A DNA stretch of 18,440 nucleotides from a virus (Duplodnaviria; Heunggongvirae; Uroviricota; Caudoviricetes). The DNA lies in IMG/VR virus record IMGVR_UViG_2671180755_000028; one strand, given 5' to 3'. Positions within the stretch are counted from its first letter, which is position 1, and every line of letters starts with the position of its first letter. A model generated the notes under the pieces. The model was not told the DNA's origin, did no database searches, and was given only the letters and a program-made list of their open reading frames with translations. This document shows positions 8,554-17,883 of the stretch, piece after piece. Both the position numbers and the translations under genes were made by a program.

Positions 8554-9207
8554 TTACCCAAACGTCTCTTCAGGCCATTGGCTGGCGATAACTTTCCCCA
8601 CAACGGAACAACTCTCATTGCATGGGATCATTGGATATTGCGGGTTTAGTGGTTGTAGAAACACCTGACCGCTATCCCTGATCAGTTTCTTGAAGGTAAA
8701 TTCATCACCACCAAGTCTGGCTATGCAGAAATCGCCGGGCTCAACAGCTTGCTCAGGGTCAACCAGAATTAACATCCCGTCAGGAAAACTAGGTTTGGAA
8801 CCTGTTGGTGCGGTCATTGAGTTACCTTCAACCTCAAGCCAGAATGCAGAGTCACTGGCTTTTTTGGTTGTGCTTACCAATCTCTCCGCATCACCTTTGG
8901 TAAAGGTTCTGAGTTCTGGAGAGAACATCCCAGCCTGAACATGAGAAAAAACAGGGTACTCATATTGTTTTTTAACTGGGGCCGATGAGTATTCGCCAAC
9001 AGGTGAAAATGTCCCGTCGTGGTTGAATGATATGTTATCAATACCAAGGTATTTAAACACCACACCAATATCACTAAGAGATGGATGACGAGATCCGCGC
9101 AACCAGTGTCCAATTCCACCCTGCGTCATACCTAGCTCTTCGGCTAACTTCTCTTGAGTTATGCCGAGCTCTTTCATTCTGGATCTAGCCAGTTCATACC
9201 ATTTCAT
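8554..9207 (-). CDS. cI: CI-type prophage repressor: XRE-type HTH N-terminal domain plus lambda-like S24 autocleavage C-terminal domain
   Basis: The C-terminal part from about [29 protein letters not shown] to ...[12 protein letters not shown] matches lambda CI as recalled. The N-terminal domain ([38 protein letters not shown]...) is unlike lambda. The start is set at the ATG at 9205-9207, which has AAGGA about 8 nt upstream; alternatives are 9213 and 9255. Confidence 0.85.
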
Positions 9208-9249
9208 TTTCATGTCCTTATTATTACGCTCTGTACTGGAACCATCCAT

Positions 9250-9324
9250 GCACAATGTGTATTTTTACTTGTATTTGAGAAGTACATATTGTATTTTTTT
9301 ATTCGTGGTTACTATGGAGGGCAT
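9250..9324. promoter_or_regulatory. oR/pR/pRM divergent control region
   Basis: AT-rich 70-bp spacer between divergent cI and cro. It contains AAGTACATATTGTATT (9280-9295) and CACAATGTGTATT (9252-9264), both related to the oL sites. A TACAAT -10 is available on the minus strand for pRM. Confidence 0.5.
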
Positions 9325-10172: not shown

Positions 10173-10980
10173 GTTAGCTGATTACAGGCCTCAACTGGAG
10201 GTCGTGGAGCATCGCGTGGCAGATACCGAAGATGGTTTCATGCGCGTTGCTAACGAGATTACCGACAGTCTGCTGATGGCTGATTTAACCGTCCGGCAGT
10301 TGAAGGTGATGCTCGCTATCATGCGCAAGACATACGGATTCAATAAGCCGATGGATCGACTCACAAACACGCAGATAGCAGCCATGACAGGTATTCATCA
10401 CACTCATGTTTGCGCTGCCAAGCGCCAGCTTATTGAGCGTAAATTCCTCATTGCTGATGGCGTGAAAATCGGAGTGAACAAGGTGGTTTCTCAGTGGATT
10501 AGCCAGGACAGCTTAACATTAGCTAAAACAGCTAATAAAACATTAGCCAAGTCGGCTAATGGGTATAAGCCAAGTCAGCTAAACACAAAAGACAATATAC
10601 AAAAGACAATAAATACAAATACCCCCTTACCCCCTAACGGGGATGGCGATGGGCAGGTTAAACCTGAACGTCGCAAGGCAGAACGAATCGACTACGAATC
10701 CTTCCTGAACGCCTACAACACCGAAGTCGGTGACAGACTTCCACACGCTGTTGCGGTCAACGAGAAACGAAAACGCCGCCTGAAGAAAATTATCCCGCAA
10801 CTGAAAACGCCAAACGTGGACGGTTTCAGAGCGTATGTCAGGGCGTTTGTGCATCAGGCCAAGCCGTTTTACTTCGGAGACAACGACACGGGCTGGACGG
10901 CAGATTTTGATTACCTGCTGAGGGAAGATTCGTTAACGGGAGTTCGGGAAGGGAAGTTTGCAGACAGGGGGATTGCATGA
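10159..10980 (+). CDS. O: Replication initiator, lambda O-like, 273 aa
   Basis: The N-terminal domain ...[38 protein letters not shown]... parallels lambda O ...ADLTKRQFKVLLAILRKTYGWNKPMDRITDSQL... as recalled. Iterons lie inside the gene, and AGGAG precedes the ATG. Confidence 0.85.
10512..10622 (+). repeat. Replication origin: iterons plus an AT-rich tract inside the O gene
   Basis: Three or more spaced dyad repeats: TTAGCTAAAACAGCTAA, TTAGCCAAGTCGGCTAA and TAAGCCAAGTCAGCTAA. These are followed by the A-rich stretch AAAAGACAATATACAAAAGACAATAAATACAAATA. Confidence 0.55.
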
Positions 10981-12353
10981 GACAGGATATCGAAGCTAGC
11001 GTTATCGGTGGCCTGCTGATTGGTGGATTAACTCCAACCGCCAGTGACGTTCTGGCAACGCTGGAGCCGGAAGCGTTTTCAATTCCGCTCTACCGGAAAG
11101 CCTTCGAGGTTATTCGCAAGCAGGCGAGAAACAGAAACCTAATCGATGCGCTGATGGTTGCCGAGGCGTGCGGAGAGGAGCATTTCACGTCAATCCTGAT
11201 GACCAGCAAAAACTGCCCGAGTGCCGCAAACCTGAAGGGATATGCCGGAATGGTCGCGGATAACTATCACCGCCGTCTGGTGCTGGAAATCATGGATGAA
11301 ATGCGTGAACCAATCCAAAGCGGAACCATCGACGCATCGAGTCAGGCGATGGATGAACTTGTAAAGCGTCTTTCAGCCATCAGAAAGCCCCGTGACGAGG
11401 TTAAACCTGTACGGTTAGGGGAAATCATCACTGACTACACTGACACGCTTGACAGGCGTCTGAGGAACGGAGAAGAGTCAGATACCCTGAAGACCGGAAT
11501 CGAAGAGCTTGACGCTATCACTGGAGGGATGAACGCAGAAGACCTGGTGATTATCGCCGCTCGTCCTGGTATGGGGAAAACCGAACTGGCGCTGAAGATT
11601 GCCGAAGGTGTGGCAAGCCGCGTTATTCCTGGTTCTGACGTCCGGCGCGGGGTATTGATTTTCTCAATGGAAATGAGCGCATTGCAGATTGCAGAGCGAA
11701 GCATTGCCAACGCCGGGAGGATGTCGGTTAGCGTACTGCGAAATCCTGCATCGATGGATGACGAGGGCTGGGCACGTGTTGCTAACGGCATGAGTCAGCT
11801 TGCAGATTTGGATGTATGGGTAGTCGATGCTTCGCGGTTATCGGTCGAAGAAATACGCTCAATCGCAGAACGGCATAAGCAGGAAAATCCAAACCTGTCA
11901 CTCATCATGGCGGATTATCTTGGCCTGATTGAGAAGCCGAAAGCAGACCGCAACGACCTCGCAATTGCTCACATCTCCGGAAGCCTGAAGGCGATGGCGA
12001 AAGACCTGAAAACACCGGTTATCTCCCTGAGTCAGCTTTCGCGCGATGTTGAGAAGCGACCAAACAAACGCCCGACAAACGCAGATTTGCGTGATTCAGG
12101 AAGCATTGAACAGGACGCAGACTCAATCATCATGCTCTATCGGGAAGCGGTATATGATGAGAACAGTAGCGCCGCGCCATTTGCTGAAATCATCGTGACG
12201 AAAAACCGTTTTGGCTCGCTTGGTACAGTTTACCAGCGGTTCTGTAACGGACACTTTGTTGCATGTGACCAGGATGAAGCCAGACAGATTTGCACAGCAT
12301 CAAATGCACCTGCTGCGCGTGGCAGACGATATGCACAAGGGGCTGACGTATGA
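10977..12353 (+). CDS. DnaB-family replicative helicase, 458 aa, in the position of lambda P
   Basis: DnaB-like N-terminus ([13 protein letters not shown]), Walker A ([14 protein letters not shown]), and helicase C-terminal motifs ([41 protein letters not shown]). The start overlaps the O stop. Confidence 0.9.
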
Positions 12354-13700: not shown

Positions 13701-14224
13701 CTATCAAATCAAATACGCCAGCACACGACAAGGACTGCTGGCAAACGCCGCTCTGGCTTTTTGATGCGCTGGATATTGAGTTTGGATTCTGGCTGGATTC
13801 AGCTGCGAGCGACAAAAACGCTCTGTGCGCTCACTGGCTAACTGAGGCTGACGACGCGCTAAATTCTGAGTGGATAAGCCACGGTGCAATCTGGAATAAC
13901 CCACCGTACAGCAATATCAGGCCGTGGGTGGAAAAAGCCGCTGAGCAGTGCATACAACAGCGACAGACGGTAGTGATGCTTGTGCCAGAGGATATGTCTG
14001 TCGGATGGTTCAGCAAGGCTCTGGAGAGTGTTGACGAAGTTCGCATCATCACTGATGGACGGATTAATTTTATCGAACCATCGACAGGGCTGGAGAAGAA
14101 GGGAAACAGCAAAGGCTCAATGTTGCTGATTTGGCGACCGTTCATCAGTCCTCGACGGATGTTTACTACCGTATCCAAAGCGGCATTGATGGCGATCGGG
14201 CTGGGCGTCAGGAGGGCTGCATGA
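13697..14224 (+). CDS. Phage Dam-type DNA N6-adenine methyltransferase, 175 aa
   Basis: From [44 protein letters not shown]..., with the catalytic NPPY motif (WNNPPYSN). The start overlaps the ninB stop (GCATGA). Confidence 0.85.
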
Positions 14225-14403
14225 GGCGACAGCGACGAAGTATCACCGACATCATCTGCGAAAACTGCAAATACCTTCCAACGAAACGCTCCAGAAATAA
14301 ACGCAAGCCAATCCCAAAAGAATCTGACGTAAAAACCTTCAATTACACGGCTCACCTGTGGGATATCCGGTGGCTAAGACATCGTGCGAGGAAAACAAGG
14401 TGA
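14221..14403 (+). CDS. ninE: NinE-like protein, 60 aa
   Basis: [60 protein letters not shown]. The start overlaps the methyltransferase stop. Resembles lambda NinE as recalled. Confidence 0.65.
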
Positions 14404-14494
14404 TTGACGTGATGATTTATTCGGGGCTATATTCCTCAAACGCCAGCAAAATCTGGCGTCGGGATTGGCGTCCTGGATAGAGACCGCGACAGAT

Positions 14495-14519
14495 ACACGC
14501 CGCGAGCGTGTTTTTTATT
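14495..14519 (+). terminator. Intrinsic terminator after ninE
   Basis: Stem ACACGC / GCGTGT with loop CGCGA, followed by TTTTTTATT. Confidence 0.6.
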
Positions 14520-14677
14520 GTCGTATGCACGCGCACATCTGAATTATGGTGGGCTGTGTGGGGGCGGAGAGATCCGCGCCGGTCGGTTTCCCGGTTACGC
14601 CAACCCTGCACAGTTCACCACCAGACGATTGGCGTCGTCGGTGGTGAGTTATTAAGAAACCACCAGAGGGCGTCATT

Positions 14678-15271
14678 ATGACAACTAAAATTTCTGTTGA
14701 AACTCTCTCCCCGATCACCCATAACCAGATTCCTGTTATTACCACCGAACTTTTGNNNNNNNNNNNNNNNNNNNNNNNNNNNNNNNNNNNNNNNNNNNNN
14801 NNNNNNNNNNNNNNNNNNNNNNNNNNNNNNNNNNNNNNNNNNNNNNNNNNNNNNNNNNNNNNNNNNNNNNNNNNNNNNNNNNNNNNNNNNNNNNNNNNNN
14901 NNNNNNNNNNNNNNNTCGAAAAACTGGAAGACTGCTATTTCAGTCAAAAAATCCCAGAACAACTTCAGCTTCCAGAATCAACACTATCTATCAACTACCC
15001 TCTCTCGTGGTTTTCAGAGCATCACCCCTACTCCATGATGAGCTATGTTGATCGAAAAACTCTTAACCTGGACGTTTCTGTGCTCTTCGATATGCCAAGC
15101 CCAACTATGCGCATCCTCAACGAGCTACACAGCAAGGGCTATAACGTCGATGCAGCTGTCGCCGAATTTAACGCCTTCAAGCATCTGACGGAAGAAATGC
15201 GCCGTACTCTACAGGATATTTCAAGATTGTCAGATCGAAATTCCCGAAAAGGCTTCTCGTTAAGTCTTTAA
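14678..15271 (+). CDS. ORF6N-domain antirepressor-like protein, copy A, interrupted by an assembly gap
   Basis: N-terminus [26 protein letters not shown], then 160 N, then ...[15 protein letters not shown]... with a distinct C-terminal domain. Reading-frame continuity across the gap is not meaningful. Confidence 0.5.
   Translation: MTTKISVETLSPITHNQIPVITTELLXXXXXXXXXXXXXXXXXXXXXXXXXXXXXXXXXXXXXXXXXXXXXXXXXXXXXXEKLEDCYFSQKIPEQLQLPESTLSINYPLSWFSEHHPYSMMSYVDRKTLNLDVSVLFDMPSPTMRILNELHSKGYNVDAAVAEFNAFKHLTEEMRRTLQDISRLSDRNSRKGFSLSL
14756..14915. other. Assembly gap: 160 N, plus a 2-N join at 15795-15796
   Basis: Literal N runs. Sequence on both sides of each gap is duplicated elsewhere in 15767-16146, so the gaps sit at repeat boundaries. 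Confidence 0.95.
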
Positions 15272-15526
15272 AGAACAGATCGTTTGACAATGCTGCATTA
15301 ACGGGGATATATTCCGCCTCATGGTGCTCAAAACACCTTAGCAAGTAGCGGTTACCGCGCCCGACAGACATGCGGTTTTTTTGTGTCCAGTCTTCTTGGT
15401 TTATGACCGGGCGTGCGGCTAATACAACACCAGCAATGGGAATATGCCCGCCGACTACTTGCGGTTTTGAGCGCCCGGTCACCCTCTCAAAAGGGGTAAA
15501 TCAAAATATCAAGTAGGACATAAAGC

Positions 15527-15794
15527 ATGAAAACCATCTCCGTGGAGTCCCTCTCCATAATTTCATTTAGTAATATACCTGTGGTGACTACAGAGCTTCT
15601 TGCCAGCTTATATGGCACAGAACCAGATTACATCCGAAAAAATTTCAATCGGAATTCTGGACGATTTGTTATCGGTAAGCACTACTTTTTACTTGAGAAT
15701 GAGGAGTTGCGCGAATTTAAGCACAGCATGTCTTTAAGACCTTCTGTGAAAATCGCCCGTAACGTTCGCTCCCTCATCCTCTGGACAGAACGCG
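15527..15794 (+). CDS. ORF6N-domain antirepressor-like protein, copy B, 3' end truncated at the NN join
   Basis: MKTISVESLSIISFSNIPVVTTELLASLYGTEPDYIRKNFNRNSGRFVIGKHYFLLENEELREFKH..., parallel to copies A and C. Confidence 0.55.
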
Positions 15795-15796
15795 NN

Positions 15797-16481
15797 GATT
15801 CCTGTTATTACCACCGAACTTTTGGCGCAGCTTTACGGCACTGAGCCGGTGCGTATTCGCCAGAATCATCATGAGAACAAAGTACGCTTCGTTGAAGGGA
15901 AACACTTTTTCAAAGTTGTTGGTAATGACCTTAAAGAATTGCGGGTAGCTTTAAACTACTCACAAAATTTGCGGGTTACTTTAAGTAACTCACAAAATTT
16001 GCAACCATCTTTAAGAGGGTTACAAATTTCCCCGAAAGCCCGCTCCCTCATCCTCTGGACAGAACGCGGCGCAGCCCGTCACGCAAAAATGCTCGAAACC
16101 GATCGGGCGTGGGAAGTGTTCGAAAAACTGGAAGACTGCTATTTCAGCCAGTGCGAGAAAAATACTGGCAAACAAGAGAAGAAGCTCAACGGGCTTTCCG
16201 CAAAAGAAACAGACAGCCTTGTATGGCTGTGGGATTATGCCAACCGCTCACAGGCATTGTTCCGTGAGTTGTATCCCGCATTAAAACTGATTCAGTCTGG
16301 CTATTCCGGCATATGCCACGACTACGGCTATGAGTTCTCGTATATCATCGGGAGGGCGAGGGGCGTTTTAATTAATCACACGCGGGATATAGATATTTAT
16401 GAGCCTGACGGGCCGACGAACCTTCTGGCATGGGAAAGGCTTAAGAACAAAGAGTTGCCGCCTTCACTGCATCGCTACTGA
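15797..16481 (+). CDS. ORF6N-domain antirepressor-like protein, copy C, 5' end missing at the NN join
   Basis: ...[48 protein letters not shown]..., then a 10-aa tandem repeat, the shared [10 protein letters not shown] block, and a C-terminal domain different from copy A. The track ORF at 15822 starts at TTG. Confidence 0.55.
15941..16030 (+). repeat. Three tandem 30-bp direct repeats inside copy C
   Basis: The units are GCGGGTAGCTTTAAACTACTCACAAAATTT, GCGGGTTACTTTAAGTAACTCACAAAATTT and GCAACCATCTTTAAGAGGGTTACAAATTTC. They encode [20 protein letters not shown] and [10 protein letters not shown]. Confidence 0.6.
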
Positions 16482-16500
16482 CAATTGACAACTTAACAAA

Positions 16501-16525
16501 CCCAGCTTCGGCTGGGTTTTTTATT
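16501..16525 (+). terminator. Intrinsic terminator after ORF6N copy C
   Basis: Stem CCCAGC / GCTGGG with loop TTCG, followed by TTTTTTATT. Confidence 0.6.
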
Positions 16526-16549
16526 GCTGAATTTTCAATGTGAGAGGAC

Positions 16550-17278
16550 ATGACAATGAATGAGCTGATAAATAGCAATGCCATCAAAATGACAAGCATT
16601 GAAATCGCTGAGTTGGTGGGAAGCCAACACGGTAATGTCAGAATATCAATAGAACGTCTGGCAAAGCGTGGGGTGATTCAACTTCCTTCAATGCAAAAAG
16701 TTGAAAATAAACAAACAATTAGCCCTAACAAATTCACAAGCGTGTATATATTCGAAGGCGAACAAGGTAAGCGAGACAGCATTATTGTCGTCGCTCAGTT
16801 GTCGCCGGAATTCACCGCTCGCCTTGTTGACCGCTGGCGAGAACTCGAAGGGGCAACCGCGAAAATACCACAAACCTTTTCTGAGGCATTGCGCCTTGCG
16901 GCCGACCTTGAAGACCAGAAGGCTGAACTGGAGAAACAGCTTGCTCTCGCAGCACCTAAAGTTGAGTTTGCCGATCGAGTTGGCGAGGCCAGCGGAATTT
17001 TGATTGGAAACTTTGCAAAGGTTGTTGGTATTGGTCCAAACAAACGGTTTGCGTGGATGCGCGATCACAAAATCCTTATTGCTTCAGGTGCCCGGCGCAA
17101 TGTGCCAATGCAGGAATATATGGATCGCGGCTATTTCACAGTGAAAGAAACAGCGGTCAATACAAATCACGGAATACAGATATCGTTCACCACAAAAATC
17201 ACCGGGCGTGGTCAACAGTGGCTGACAAGAAAGCTGCTAGATAACGGAATGCTTAAAGTAACAGGGGAGGCTGCTTAA
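16550..17278 (+). CDS. Phage antirepressor with Rha-like N-terminal and KilAC-like C-terminal domains, 242 aa
   Basis: N-terminal [28 protein letters not shown] and C-terminal ...[10 protein letters not shown]...[23 protein letters not shown]...[32 protein letters not shown], a pattern typical of the Rha/Ant family. The true start may be the second ATG at 16556, which has better spacing to GAGAGGA. Confidence 0.75.
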
Positions 17279-17883
17279 TGGCTAAACCAGCGCGAAGGAA
17301 ATGCAAAATCTGTAAGGAATGGTTTCACCCGGCATTCTCAAATCAGTGGTGGTGCAGCCCGGAACACGGAACTAAATTAGCACTCGAACGACGAAATAAA
17401 GAACGCGAAAAGGCGGAAAAAACAGCAGAGAAGAAACGACGACGAGAGGAGCAGAAACAGAAAGATAAAATTAAGATTCGAAAACTCGCCTTAAAGCCCC
17501 GCAGTTACTGGATTAAACAAGCCCAACAAGCCGTACACGCCTTCATCAGAGAAAGAGACCGCGACTTACCATGTATCTCGTGCGGAACGCTCACGTCTGC
17601 TCAGTGGGATGCCGGACATTACCGGACAACTGCTGCGGCGCCTCAACTCCGATTTGATGAACGCAATATTCACAAGCAATGCGTGGTGTGCAACCAACAT
17701 AAAAGCGGAAATCTCGTTCCGTATCGCGTCGAACTGATTAACCGCATCGGGCAGGAAGCAGTAGACGAAATCGAATCAAACCATAACCGCCATCGCTGGA
17801 CTGTCGAAGAGTGCAGGGCCATCAAGGCGGAGTATCAACAGAAACTTAAAAAACTGCGAAACAGCAGAAGTGAGGTTGCATGA
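17278..17883 (+). CDS. ninG: NinG (Rap) recombination-promoting endonuclease, 201 aa
   Basis: [48 protein letters not shown]...[48 protein letters not shown]... closely matches lambda NinG as recalled. Confidence 0.9.

Follow-up and report, generated by a model that had tools for sequence, protein, structure and literature searches.

An apparent array of three ORF6N antirepressor paralogues in a Shiga-toxin prophage scaffold is most probably a mis-threaded antA-antB locus

Introduction

The stretch of DNA analyzed here (hereafter, the window) is 18,440 nt long, was taken from a short-read scaffold, and belongs to the early-right (nin) region of a phage 2851/1717-like Shiga-toxin (Stx) prophage of Escherichia coli O157:H7. 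An array of three ORF6N-domain paralogues (copies A, B, and C) with exchanged C-terminal domains, tandem repeats, and gaps had been predicted between positions 14678 and 16481 from the letters alone. Does the prophage carry such an array, or have the pieces of fewer genes been put out of order by the scaffold?

Materials and methods

N runs and exact repeats were re-checked on the letters of the window, to which all coordinates refer. The locus was re-threaded in the order 14000-14755, 15825-16147, 14944-15794, and 16069-17300, giving 3162 bp. Pairing of antisense RNAs was assessed by exact complementary words, after whole-length duplex energies failed to discriminate for the regulatory cassette upstream of antA (cassette A; cassette B lies upstream of antB). 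Features are collected in Table 1.

Table 1. Features of the antA-antB-roi region, in window coordinates.
Feature	Position	Strand	Basis or remark
Sigma-70 promoter-like site, TTGACG-18-TATATT	14404..14433	+	Consensus match only (locus 1905-1934, offset +12499)
isrK-type RNA / c4-a1b1 decoy	14427..14516	+	Rfam
C4-type antisense RNA	14542..14625	+	Rfam RF01695, 66.7 bits (gathering score 45)
antA codons 1-26, end of contig 1	14678..14755	+	Final 28 bp overlap 15797-15824 (k-1); WP_000208497.1
160-N scaffold gap	14756..14915	.	Stands for window 15825-16119 (295 bp), which the scaffold carries at another site
End of the 107-bp block (28 bp), antA C-terminal module A, and stop	14916..15271	+	No Pfam family; phrog_1760 'anti-repressor'
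Sigma-70 promoter-like site, TTGACA-18-TATATT	15284..15313	+	11/12 matches (locus 2920-2949, offset +12364)
Candidate decoy targets GCTCAAAAC and GCAAGTAG	15326..15348	+	Complementary words
C4-like RNA (Rfam sRNA-Xcc1)	15405..15488	+	RF02221, 79.3 bits (gathering score 53)
antB codons 1-89, ORF6N N-domain B, end of contig 2	15527..15794	+	Ends with the opening 28 bp of the 107-bp block; WP_000849633.1
NN scaffold join, no real adjacency	15795..15796	.	Closed-genome probe
antA codons 17-121, rest of ORF6N N-domain A	15797..16040	+	Belongs directly after 14755
In-frame 30-bp repeat inside the antA ORF6N domain	15934..16023	+	Variable, 3 or 4 units
107-bp block (36 residues)	16041..16147	+	Once in the scaffold, twice in the re-threaded locus (antA and antB), exact
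antB C-terminal module B (P22_AR_C, PF10548) and stop	16148..16481	+	Pfam
Terminator-like hairpin 3' of antB	16498..16519	+	Signal scan (locus 3860-3881, offset +12638)
roi, third antirepressor-like gene: Rha-like N-terminus and KilAC/ANT domain	16556..17278	+	PF03374

Results

The only N runs in the window are those at 14756-14915 (160 N) and 15795-15796 (2 N). Their edges carry exact 28-bp repeats, much as had been predicted: 14728-14755 recurs at 15797-15824 and 15767-15794 recurs at 16041-16068, while the repeat of 14916-14943 is equally real but lies at 16120-16147, one base away from the 16119-16146 first proposed. All three matches end at 28 bp on the gap side without extension, and together they occupy all four informative gap edges, the pattern of a de Bruijn artefact; the chance expectation of an exact 28-mer repeat in 18.4 kb is ~2e-9 (1.7e8 pairs / 4^28). 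Since the 28-mers sit exactly at the gap edges, they correspond to the k-1 overlaps expected of de Bruijn contigs with k=29. The 10-residue block said to be common to copies A and C was also found, encoded at 14918-14947 and 16122-16151. The claim of three ORF6N N-terminal domains failed: a 28-mer overlap unites 'copy A' (14678-14755) with 'copy C' (15797 onward) as the two halves of a single N-domain.

Re-threading yielded two intact genes in place of the broken copies, and the re-threaded sequence was identical at 3162/3162 nt to positions 2010533-2013694 of NZ_CP066753.1, the closed genome of E. coli O157:H7 ECP19-598 (0 mismatches); seven closed genomes matched at 100% over the 3162-bp span. 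The gene order in the closed locus is ninE, antA, antB, roi, ninG, where RefSeq annotates two ORF6N genes and one KilAC gene, and the names antA, antB, and roi are those of the phage 2851 annotation. A 200-nt probe across the NN join reached at least 80% coverage in 0 of 5426 closed E. coli genomes. O157:H7 genomes had up to six places matching the region. The original prediction, in suspecting that repeats had caused the gaps and that the copy number of the scaffold was unreliable, was supported; its three paralogues were not, closed genomes 100% identical to the window pieces carrying two, antA and antB. The alternative it had named against itself, a single gene in long reads, was half right, since closed genomes show a pair of genes at this locus, and many other strains a single fused gene.

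These results suggest that the three-gene array is, with high probability, an error of short-read scaffolding and that the true locus consists of antA and antB, a path drawn from the identity with closed genomes. An exact 107-bp block is common to antA and antB and would have confused the assembler; the 28-bp overlaps suggest that with k=29 a de Bruijn assembler was unable to thread it. The contig from 15797 onward (contig 3) would then lead from the antA N-domain through the block to the antB C-terminal module, and the loop from the antA C-terminal module to the antB N-domain (14916-15794, contig 2) would be left over as a separate contig, which the scaffolder may have placed in front, 160 N being inserted before it and NN after it, so that the locus looks like three broken paralogues. 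The 107-bp block does not account for the break at 14755/15797 that separates contigs 1 and 3, and this implies another branch in the graph. A second copy of the PA4 type was considered as the cause of the break at 14755 and rejected, since the nearest difference, at 14687, does not fit a k=29 break at 14728.

The two copies of the 107-bp block showed 100% nucleotide identity, as against ~66% in the upstream flank and an immediate break downstream. Such a pattern points to recent recombination or gene conversion at the module boundary, and not, as had been proposed, to diversifying selection. The accompanying proposal that ORF6N N-domains are joined to different C-terminal modules across the conserved block was borne out by closed genomes, in which junction probes detected antA-N with antB-C (324), antA-N with antA-C (92), antB-N with antB-C (90), and antB-N with antA-C (55), i.e., all four combinations, with alleles 97-100% identical within each module. 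These combinations represent ordinary phage mosaicism. Recombination between the two copies of the block would delete 930 bp and leave a fused antA-N::antB-C gene, as in phage 1717 and many closed genomes. Indeed, gp36 of phage 1717 equals contig 1 plus contig 3 of the window, save for one extra 30-bp unit in gp36. Since the path of contig 3 is genuine in 324 closed genomes, the fused gene could be present in the isolate as well, or in place of the pair.

The antA product (242 aa, from 729 bp) consists of an ORF6N domain (PF10543, 68.4 bits; gathering score 27.8), whose match takes up 104 residues against 84 profile positions, and a C-terminal domain with no Pfam match. The antB product (226 aa, from 681 bp) combines an ORF6N domain (69.6 bits; gathering score 27.8) with P22_AR_C, residues 127-198 matching PF10548 at 83.1 bits (gathering score 22.4; E = 1.5e-23), and Roi matched PF03374 at 108.7 bits (gathering score 25.3; E = 2.4e-31). 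Domain searches on the C-terminal modules, as originally recommended, therefore placed PF10548 in antB only and left module A without a Pfam family: PF10548 was not detected in antA even with the C-terminus alone at E up to 10, and the whole of Pfam returned only a chance CobN match under the same conditions. Anti-repressor families of PHROG matched as well, and NCBIfam gave no family for the antA, antB, or roi protein. The sole link from the antA C-terminus to the C-terminal domain of P22 Ant was a weak match to phrog_377 (E = 9.4e-10), and the C-termini of AntA and AntB had no detectable similarity to each other (BLASTP E = 1.4). Homologues of the antA C-terminus comprised 31 close proteins, mostly partial and from E. 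coli/Shigella, too shallow a set for a useful profile; module A likewise follows N-domains of the AntA/AntB, Rha, and Ash types, four N-domain kinds in all. Residues 160-228 of antA aligned to residues 6-72 of chain E of Ant from Salmonella phage SPC32H (PDB 5D50), the antA motif MRILNELHSKGYNVDAAVAEF corresponding to MKLLRELDKDGFNVDGPLAEL, although the match was marginal (phmmer with a single sequence, E = 0.004) and no better with a profile (E = 0.02). An AlphaFold model of the window-encoded antA C-terminus was poor at pLDDT 57.6, residues 58-112 alone being confident, and Foldseek of that model against the PDB gave no match and did not recover 5D50. As for the three tandem 30-bp repeats predicted in copy C, two units were evident, with Tandem Repeats Finder (TRF) reporting 2.1 copies at 85% match (15939-16002) and a second search finding two 30-bp units at 77% identity; the third unit (15994-16023) was weak, being only ~63% identical to the second by manual count.

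Each ant gene is preceded by a candidate regulatory cassette. In cassette A, the promoter-like site ends ~7 nt before the start of the isrK match (RF01394, 14440-14516; 74.7 bits, gathering score 50), the c4-a1b1 match (RF03163, 14427-14479) scored 45.9 bits, just below its gathering score of 46.7, and the signal scan placed an intrinsic terminator with a T run at 14495-14511, within the decoy RNA. ACGCCAA of the C4-type RNA (14597-14603) is complementary to TTGGCGT at both 14465-14471 and 14629-14635, and GGTTTC (14585-14590) to GAAACC (14656-14661); the duplex energy was not significant against shuffles (z ~-1.2). In cassette B, sRNA-Xcc1 has no clan in Rfam and was taken to be C4-like on account of the similarity between its consensus fold and that of C4 in the alignments. 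The duplex of this RNA with 15310-15404 was reached by 0/300 shuffles and the leader duplex had a z-score of -2.5; CTACTTG (15455-15461) is complementary to CAAGTAG (15510-15516), adjoining the antB ribosome-binding site, and TTTTGA to TCAAAA (15501-15506). Short frames precede both genes, at 14508-14681 with a GTG start and at 15370-15516 with an ATG start (48 aa).

Promoter-like and terminator-like sites occur in the order expected of a cassette, and promoter-like sites across the region were no more numerous than in shuffles. Complementary words of 6-9 nt link the C4-type RNA of either cassette to the decoy and leader of that cassette and not to those of the other, with 7-9-mers on the decoy side in both cassettes and 6-7-mers on the leader side, 6-50 nt upstream of the ant start codons. 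Since the two cassettes have different recognition sequences, they should act independently. A promoter would be followed by a short, terminated decoy RNA of the isrK/a1b1 type and then by a C4-type antisense RNA, whose unpaired segments would pair with the decoy and with the leader beside the ant ribosome-binding site, and each ant gene would be kept silent in the lysogen by its own cassette, in a layout like that of P1 immI. Antisense control of the ant genes by C4-type RNAs is a prediction from RNA family membership and from the precedents of P1 and Gifsy-1.

Discussion

That the scaffold's layout is real, with three tandem ORF6N paralogues and sequence missing from the gap, has next to no probability. 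Only the scaffold speaks for it, its 160-N gap leaving copy A in frame by chance (ORF 14678-15271); against this, copy B as scaffolded is out of frame and runs into a stop at 15844, copy C lacks a proper start, every gap edge is an exact k-1 overlap, and the NN adjacency is absent from all 5426 closed genomes. The notion that the 160 N hide real sequence was likewise rejected: the true interval measures 295 bp, and an ORF6N domain cannot be completed in 54 codons. We give a small chance to a different arrangement, in which the isolate has a fused antA-N::antB-C gene, as in phage 1717 or PA4, and contig 2 derives from a second, near-identical lambdoid prophage and was misplaced by the scaffolder. 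Contigs 1 and 3, which overlap by a k-1-mer, do form an intact 244-aa gene that is identical to phage 1717 gp36 save for one repeat unit and 6 nt from the PA4 gene; the fused junction is the commonest form, O157:H7 genomes offer up to six matching places, and the unexplained break at 14755 implies a further copy. However, both ends of contig 2 fall exactly inside the 107-bp block, contig 2 and the other pieces reproduce seven closed genomes base for base, including the 3-unit allele, and read pairs from a two-gene locus would lead a scaffolder to set contig 2 between contigs 1 and 3. The mis-threaded antA-antB pair is the reading that we adopt.

Diversifying selection for antirepressor specificity, as opposed to neutral mosaic recombination, is in our judgment also an unlikely source of the shared block and differing C-terminal modules. 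Several N-by-C combinations do persist in natural genomes, module A is reused behind four kinds of N-domain, and the two C-terminal modules are mutually dissimilar; yet identity over the whole 107 bp, synonymous sites included, beside the ~66% flank indicates recent exchange and not protein-level selection, and alleles within each module hardly differ. Similarly doubtful is the idea that the block is a built-in recombination switch that rewires which antisense RNA gates which antirepressor in Stx prophages. If it were, the deletion would hand control of antB's P22-type effector module to the isrK/C4 cassette of antA, with loss of cassette B and effector module A, and two-gene and fused alleles, perhaps also 3- and 4-unit alleles, might differ in inducibility and Shiga-toxin output.

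Since annotations of the genes already exist for phages 2851 and Nil2 and in RefSeq, and Rfam has families for the RNA elements, the locus holds little new biology. Exact short repeats of fixed length precisely at the edges of N gaps are the mark of a mis-threaded short-read scaffold, not of a gene array, and the sequence 'missing' from the gap was present 1 kb downstream in the same window. The antirepressor alleles of natural O157:H7 and other Shiga toxin-producing E. coli (STEC) include two-gene, fused, and reciprocal forms, all arising at one 107-bp block, and this allele diversity or the separate C4-type cassettes could bear on differences in Stx-prophage induction.

A literature search found no paper on antA-antB-roi in Stx phages and only incidental mentions of ORF6N antirepressors. 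The same locus, in the same gene order, is present in Stx2c phage 2851 (NC_049943 / FM180578) and phage Nil2 (AJ413274), which, together with RefSeq WP_000208497.1 / WP_000208502.1 and WP_000849633.1, are 99.5-100% identical to the window pieces. Phage 2851 differs in having four repeat units and an IS629/IS1203 between antA and antB, where the window has three units and no IS, and the window scaffold has the pieces out of order. The Ant of Stx2 phage 1717 (YP_002274246.1) and that of phage PA4 are each a single fused gene, with the antA N-domain, the same 107-bp block, and the antB C-terminal module but without the 930-bp interval (antA-C, cassette B, and antB-N). AntA and AntB are predicted antirepressors, on the strength of annotation, family, and the examples of P22, phi24B, P1, and Gifsy-1, and would bind and inactivate CI-type repressors via their different C-terminal modules. 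The CI gene of this prophage lies at 8554-9255 on the minus strand.

The immI region of P1/P7 comprises the c4 RNA, its a1b1/a2b2 targets, icd, and ant. Like it, the present locus places a C4-type RNA directly ahead of an antirepressor gene and in the orientation of that gene, with candidate decoy targets upstream and a second candidate set beside the ribosome-binding site, both by complementarity only; over antA residues 18-146, the Ant of the P1-like phage RCS47 is 56% identical. Unlike immI, the present locus belongs to the lambdoid nin region, has two tandem cassettes with different recognition sequences, and has no clear icd homologue. In P22, ant is regulated by Mnt, Arc, and sar, whereas control here appears to be by C4-type RNA. 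AntB shares P22_AR_C (PF10548) with the Ant proteins of P22 and phi24B but has an ORF6N N-domain, and antA lacks P22_AR_C. The phi24B and P22 proteins are reported to be 82% identical over the final 104 residues of phi24B Ant, and a role of Ant in efficient prophage induction was proposed for phi24B (PMC3064807). Gifsy-1 of Salmonella has the layout isrK-orf45-anrP (PMC4825925). The locus described here differs in lying upstream of Q in the nin region and in the GTG-only start of its upstream frame, as opposed to the two AUGs of orf45; it resembles Gifsy-1 in having an isrK-family RNA with its own terminator, then a short upstream frame, and then an antirepressor-like gene, with the stop of that frame overlapping the start of ant (ATGA).

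Results

We re-joined the scaffold pieces through their overlaps (14000-14755, 15825-16147, 14944-15794, then 16069-17300), and the resulting 3162-bp sequence matched E. coli O157:H7 ECP19-598 (NZ_CP066753.1 2010533-2013694) with 0 mismatches. RefSeq annotates this locus as ninE, an ORF6N-domain protein (242 aa, WP_000208497.1), "phage antirepressor Ant" (226 aa, WP_000849633.1), a KilAC-domain antirepressor (240 aa), and ninG; the middle three genes are called antA, antB, and roi in phages 2851 and Nil2. Since the re-joined locus is annotated and free of mismatches, the array of three ORF6N paralogues (copies A, B, and C) described in the original prediction is spurious: copies A and C each represent half of a single N-domain, and there are only two ORF6N genes. 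The scaffold layout breaks all three copies, in that copy B shifts out of frame and terminates at 15844 while copy C lacks a start. None of 5426 closed E. coli genomes covered 80% or more of a 200-nt probe spanning the NN join. Megablast of 14000-17300 against the same genomes showed the region to be covered in 66, seven of them at 100% identity over 3162 bp, vs. 3301 bp in the window.

The window contains two N runs (Table). The 28 bases before each of them recur exactly, as had been noted, and so do those after the longer run, at a position one base from the 16119-16146 originally assigned. All three matches stop at 28 bases. The chance expectation for exact 28-mer repeats in 18.4 kb is ~2e-9, and the exact placement of three equally long repeats on gap edges rules out chance; the repeats look like the k-1 overlaps of a de Bruijn-graph assembler at k=29. 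In the true locus, antA and antB share an exact 107-bp coding block (36 protein letters), 5' of which their N-domains are ~66% identical in nucleotides and 3' of which they diverge from the first base. Contig 3 (15797 onward) follows a path from the antA N-domain through the block to the antB C-terminus, and contig 2 (14916-15794) is the loop from the antA C-terminus to the antB N-domain, with 28 block bases at either end. The assembly splits contig 1 from contig 3 (14755/15797) at a 28-mer outside the block, and the block does not explain this split. Another graph branch is implied, probably an additional, nearly identical copy at another position of the source genome; a PA4-type copy was rejected as the cause, since the closest position at which it differs is 14687.

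Coordinates of features in the window
Feature	Position	Remarks
N runs	14756-14915; 15795-15796	160 N; NN
Recurrence, 28 bases 5' of 160-N gap	15797-15824	
Recurrence, 28 bases 3' of 160-N gap	16120-16147	
Recurrence, 28 bases 5' of NN	16041-16068	
Sequence proper to 160-N gap	15825-16119	295 bases
107-bp block	16041-16147	
30-bp repeat	15934-16023	TRF 2.1 copies, 85% match
Stretch with marginal SPC32H match	15138-15205	residues 160-228, re-threaded antA protein
Cassette A (before antA)	14404-14677	
Promoter-like hexamers, A	14404-14433	end few bases 5' of decoy
c4-a1b1	14427-14479	Rfam, slightly under threshold
isrK	14440-14516	Rfam, above gathering score; closed by terminator
Upstream frame, A	14508-14681	GTG start, 57 aa
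C4 antisense RNA	14542-14625	Rfam, above gathering score
Cassette B (before antB)	15284-15526	
Promoter-like hexamers, B	15284-15313	end few bases 5' of decoy
Upstream frame, B	15370-15516	ATG start, 48 aa; stop lies 10 nt 5' of antB
sRNA-Xcc1	15405-15488	Rfam, above gathering score; consensus fold looks C4-like in alignments
Lambda_thermo (cIII thermoregulator element)	5551-5609, minus strand	Rfam, 88.5 bits
dnaB-like helicase gene	10977-12353	intact

The proposal that C-terminal domains are swapped was borne out. Counting full-length matches of four 264-nt junction probes in closed genomes, we found the antA N-domain joined through the block to the antB C-terminus in 324 and to its own in 92, and the antB N-domain joined to its own C-terminus in 90 and to that of antA in 55. 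The antA C-terminal module (module A) also follows AntA/AntB (PF08346), Rha, and Ash N-domains. With all four junctions and these further partners, the block is a recombination joint between modules, i.e., ordinary lambdoid mosaicism. Its 100% nucleotide identity points to recent exchange and not to the diversifying selection that had been suggested. Phage 1717 gp36, a single fused gene (antA-N::antB-C), equals contig 1 plus contig 3 exactly, with one additional 30-bp unit, and phage PA4 carries the same fusion with three units and six substitutions. As other strains do carry the fused gene, the isolate may itself hold one, in addition to or in place of the two-gene path, although we consider its presence in the isolate unlikely. 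In a 170-aa protein (P0001, annotated "antitermination protein") from a 5.1-Mb E. coli contig, translated sequence of the isrK terminator region (VFFIVVCTRTSEL) runs straight into the block end and module A, which suggests another natural deletion allele that lacks the C4 RNA and ORF6N domain.

In the two-gene locus, both antA and antB matched ORF6N (PF10543), antB matched P22_AR_C (PF10548), and roi matched KilAC/ANT (PF03374), with a sub-threshold match to Rha. The antA C-terminus matched no Pfam or NCBIfam family and showed no similarity to that of antB; it belongs to phrog_1760, "anti-repressor". Its match to the Ant of Salmonella phage SPC32H (86 aa; PDB 5D50 chain E) was marginal (E = 0.004 single sequence, 0.02 profile); the two have an ELxxxGxNVDxxxAE motif in common, and the structure model was poor. 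Three tandem 30-bp repeats had been reported in copy C; the periodicity is present but less marked than reported, and the third unit is degenerate. The repeat is an in-frame expansion within the antA ORF6N domain (Pfam match of 104 residues vs. 84 profile positions). Comparison of the units with those of antA in L002 and L003 (phage 2851), the fused ant gene in L004, and L006 showed that their number varies among strains: the window, ECP19-598, and PA4 carry three, and the alleles of JEONG-1266, phage 2851, and phage 1717 carry four, one unit (10 protein letters) being exactly duplicated.

Before each ant gene lies a cassette made up of promoter-like site, terminated decoy RNA, and C4-type RNA, the last spanned by a short reading frame; the two cassettes are tandem, collinear, and ~64% identical. 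In cassette A, where statistical support for pairing is weak, the ACGCCAA stretch within the C4 RNA complements TTGGCGT, which occurs both in the decoy and in the antA leader, and GGTTTC complements GAAACC immediately 5' of the Shine-Dalgarno sequence. In cassette B, CTACTTG(C) is complementary to GCAAGTAG of the decoy, as well as to the CAAGTAG that adjoins the antB ribosome-binding site, and GTTTTGAGC is complementary to GCTCAAAAC of the decoy, with 6 nt of complementarity to TCAAAA of the leader. The recognition sequences differ (ACGCCAA/GGTTTC vs. CTACTTG/GTTTTGAGC), and no cross-cassette complementarity of such words was found.

Discussion

The original prediction correctly sensed an assembly problem, around a known locus: the two genes, the fused alleles, and the regulatory RNAs have all been annotated or catalogued before. 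Outside this locus, the window holds the early region of a Stx prophage of the phage 2851/1717/YYZ-2008 type (99.1-99.4% identity), with exo, bet, gam, kil, cIII, cI, cro, cII, O, P, and nin genes. The Lambda_thermo match fits the cIII annotated at the equivalent position in the closed genome. Phage 2851 (L003 2974-4187) and strain AUSMDU00002545 (NZ_CP045975.1) carry IS629/IS1203 copies in the antA-antB interval, and in ECP19-598 IS1203 splits the dnaB-like helicase gene (L005 11011-12224).

The ant products would bind repressor. The Ant of Stx phage phi24B has a P22-type C-terminus; knock-out and complemented lysogens were assayed with a late-promoter reporter, and the authors proposed that Ant favours efficient prophage induction (PMC3064807). 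At the present locus, the C4-type RNA would repress ant by antisense pairing, and the decoy would relieve this repression. The same regulatory logic is found in the immI region of P1/P7, a C4 antisense system (Rfam RF01695, RF03163). It is also that of Gifsy-1 isrK-orf45-anrP, in which the short IsrK RNA activates in trans the translation of an upstream frame and antirepressor-like AnrP (PMC4825925), and the ATGA stop/start overlap of orf45 and anrP is likewise seen between the 57-aa frame and antA.
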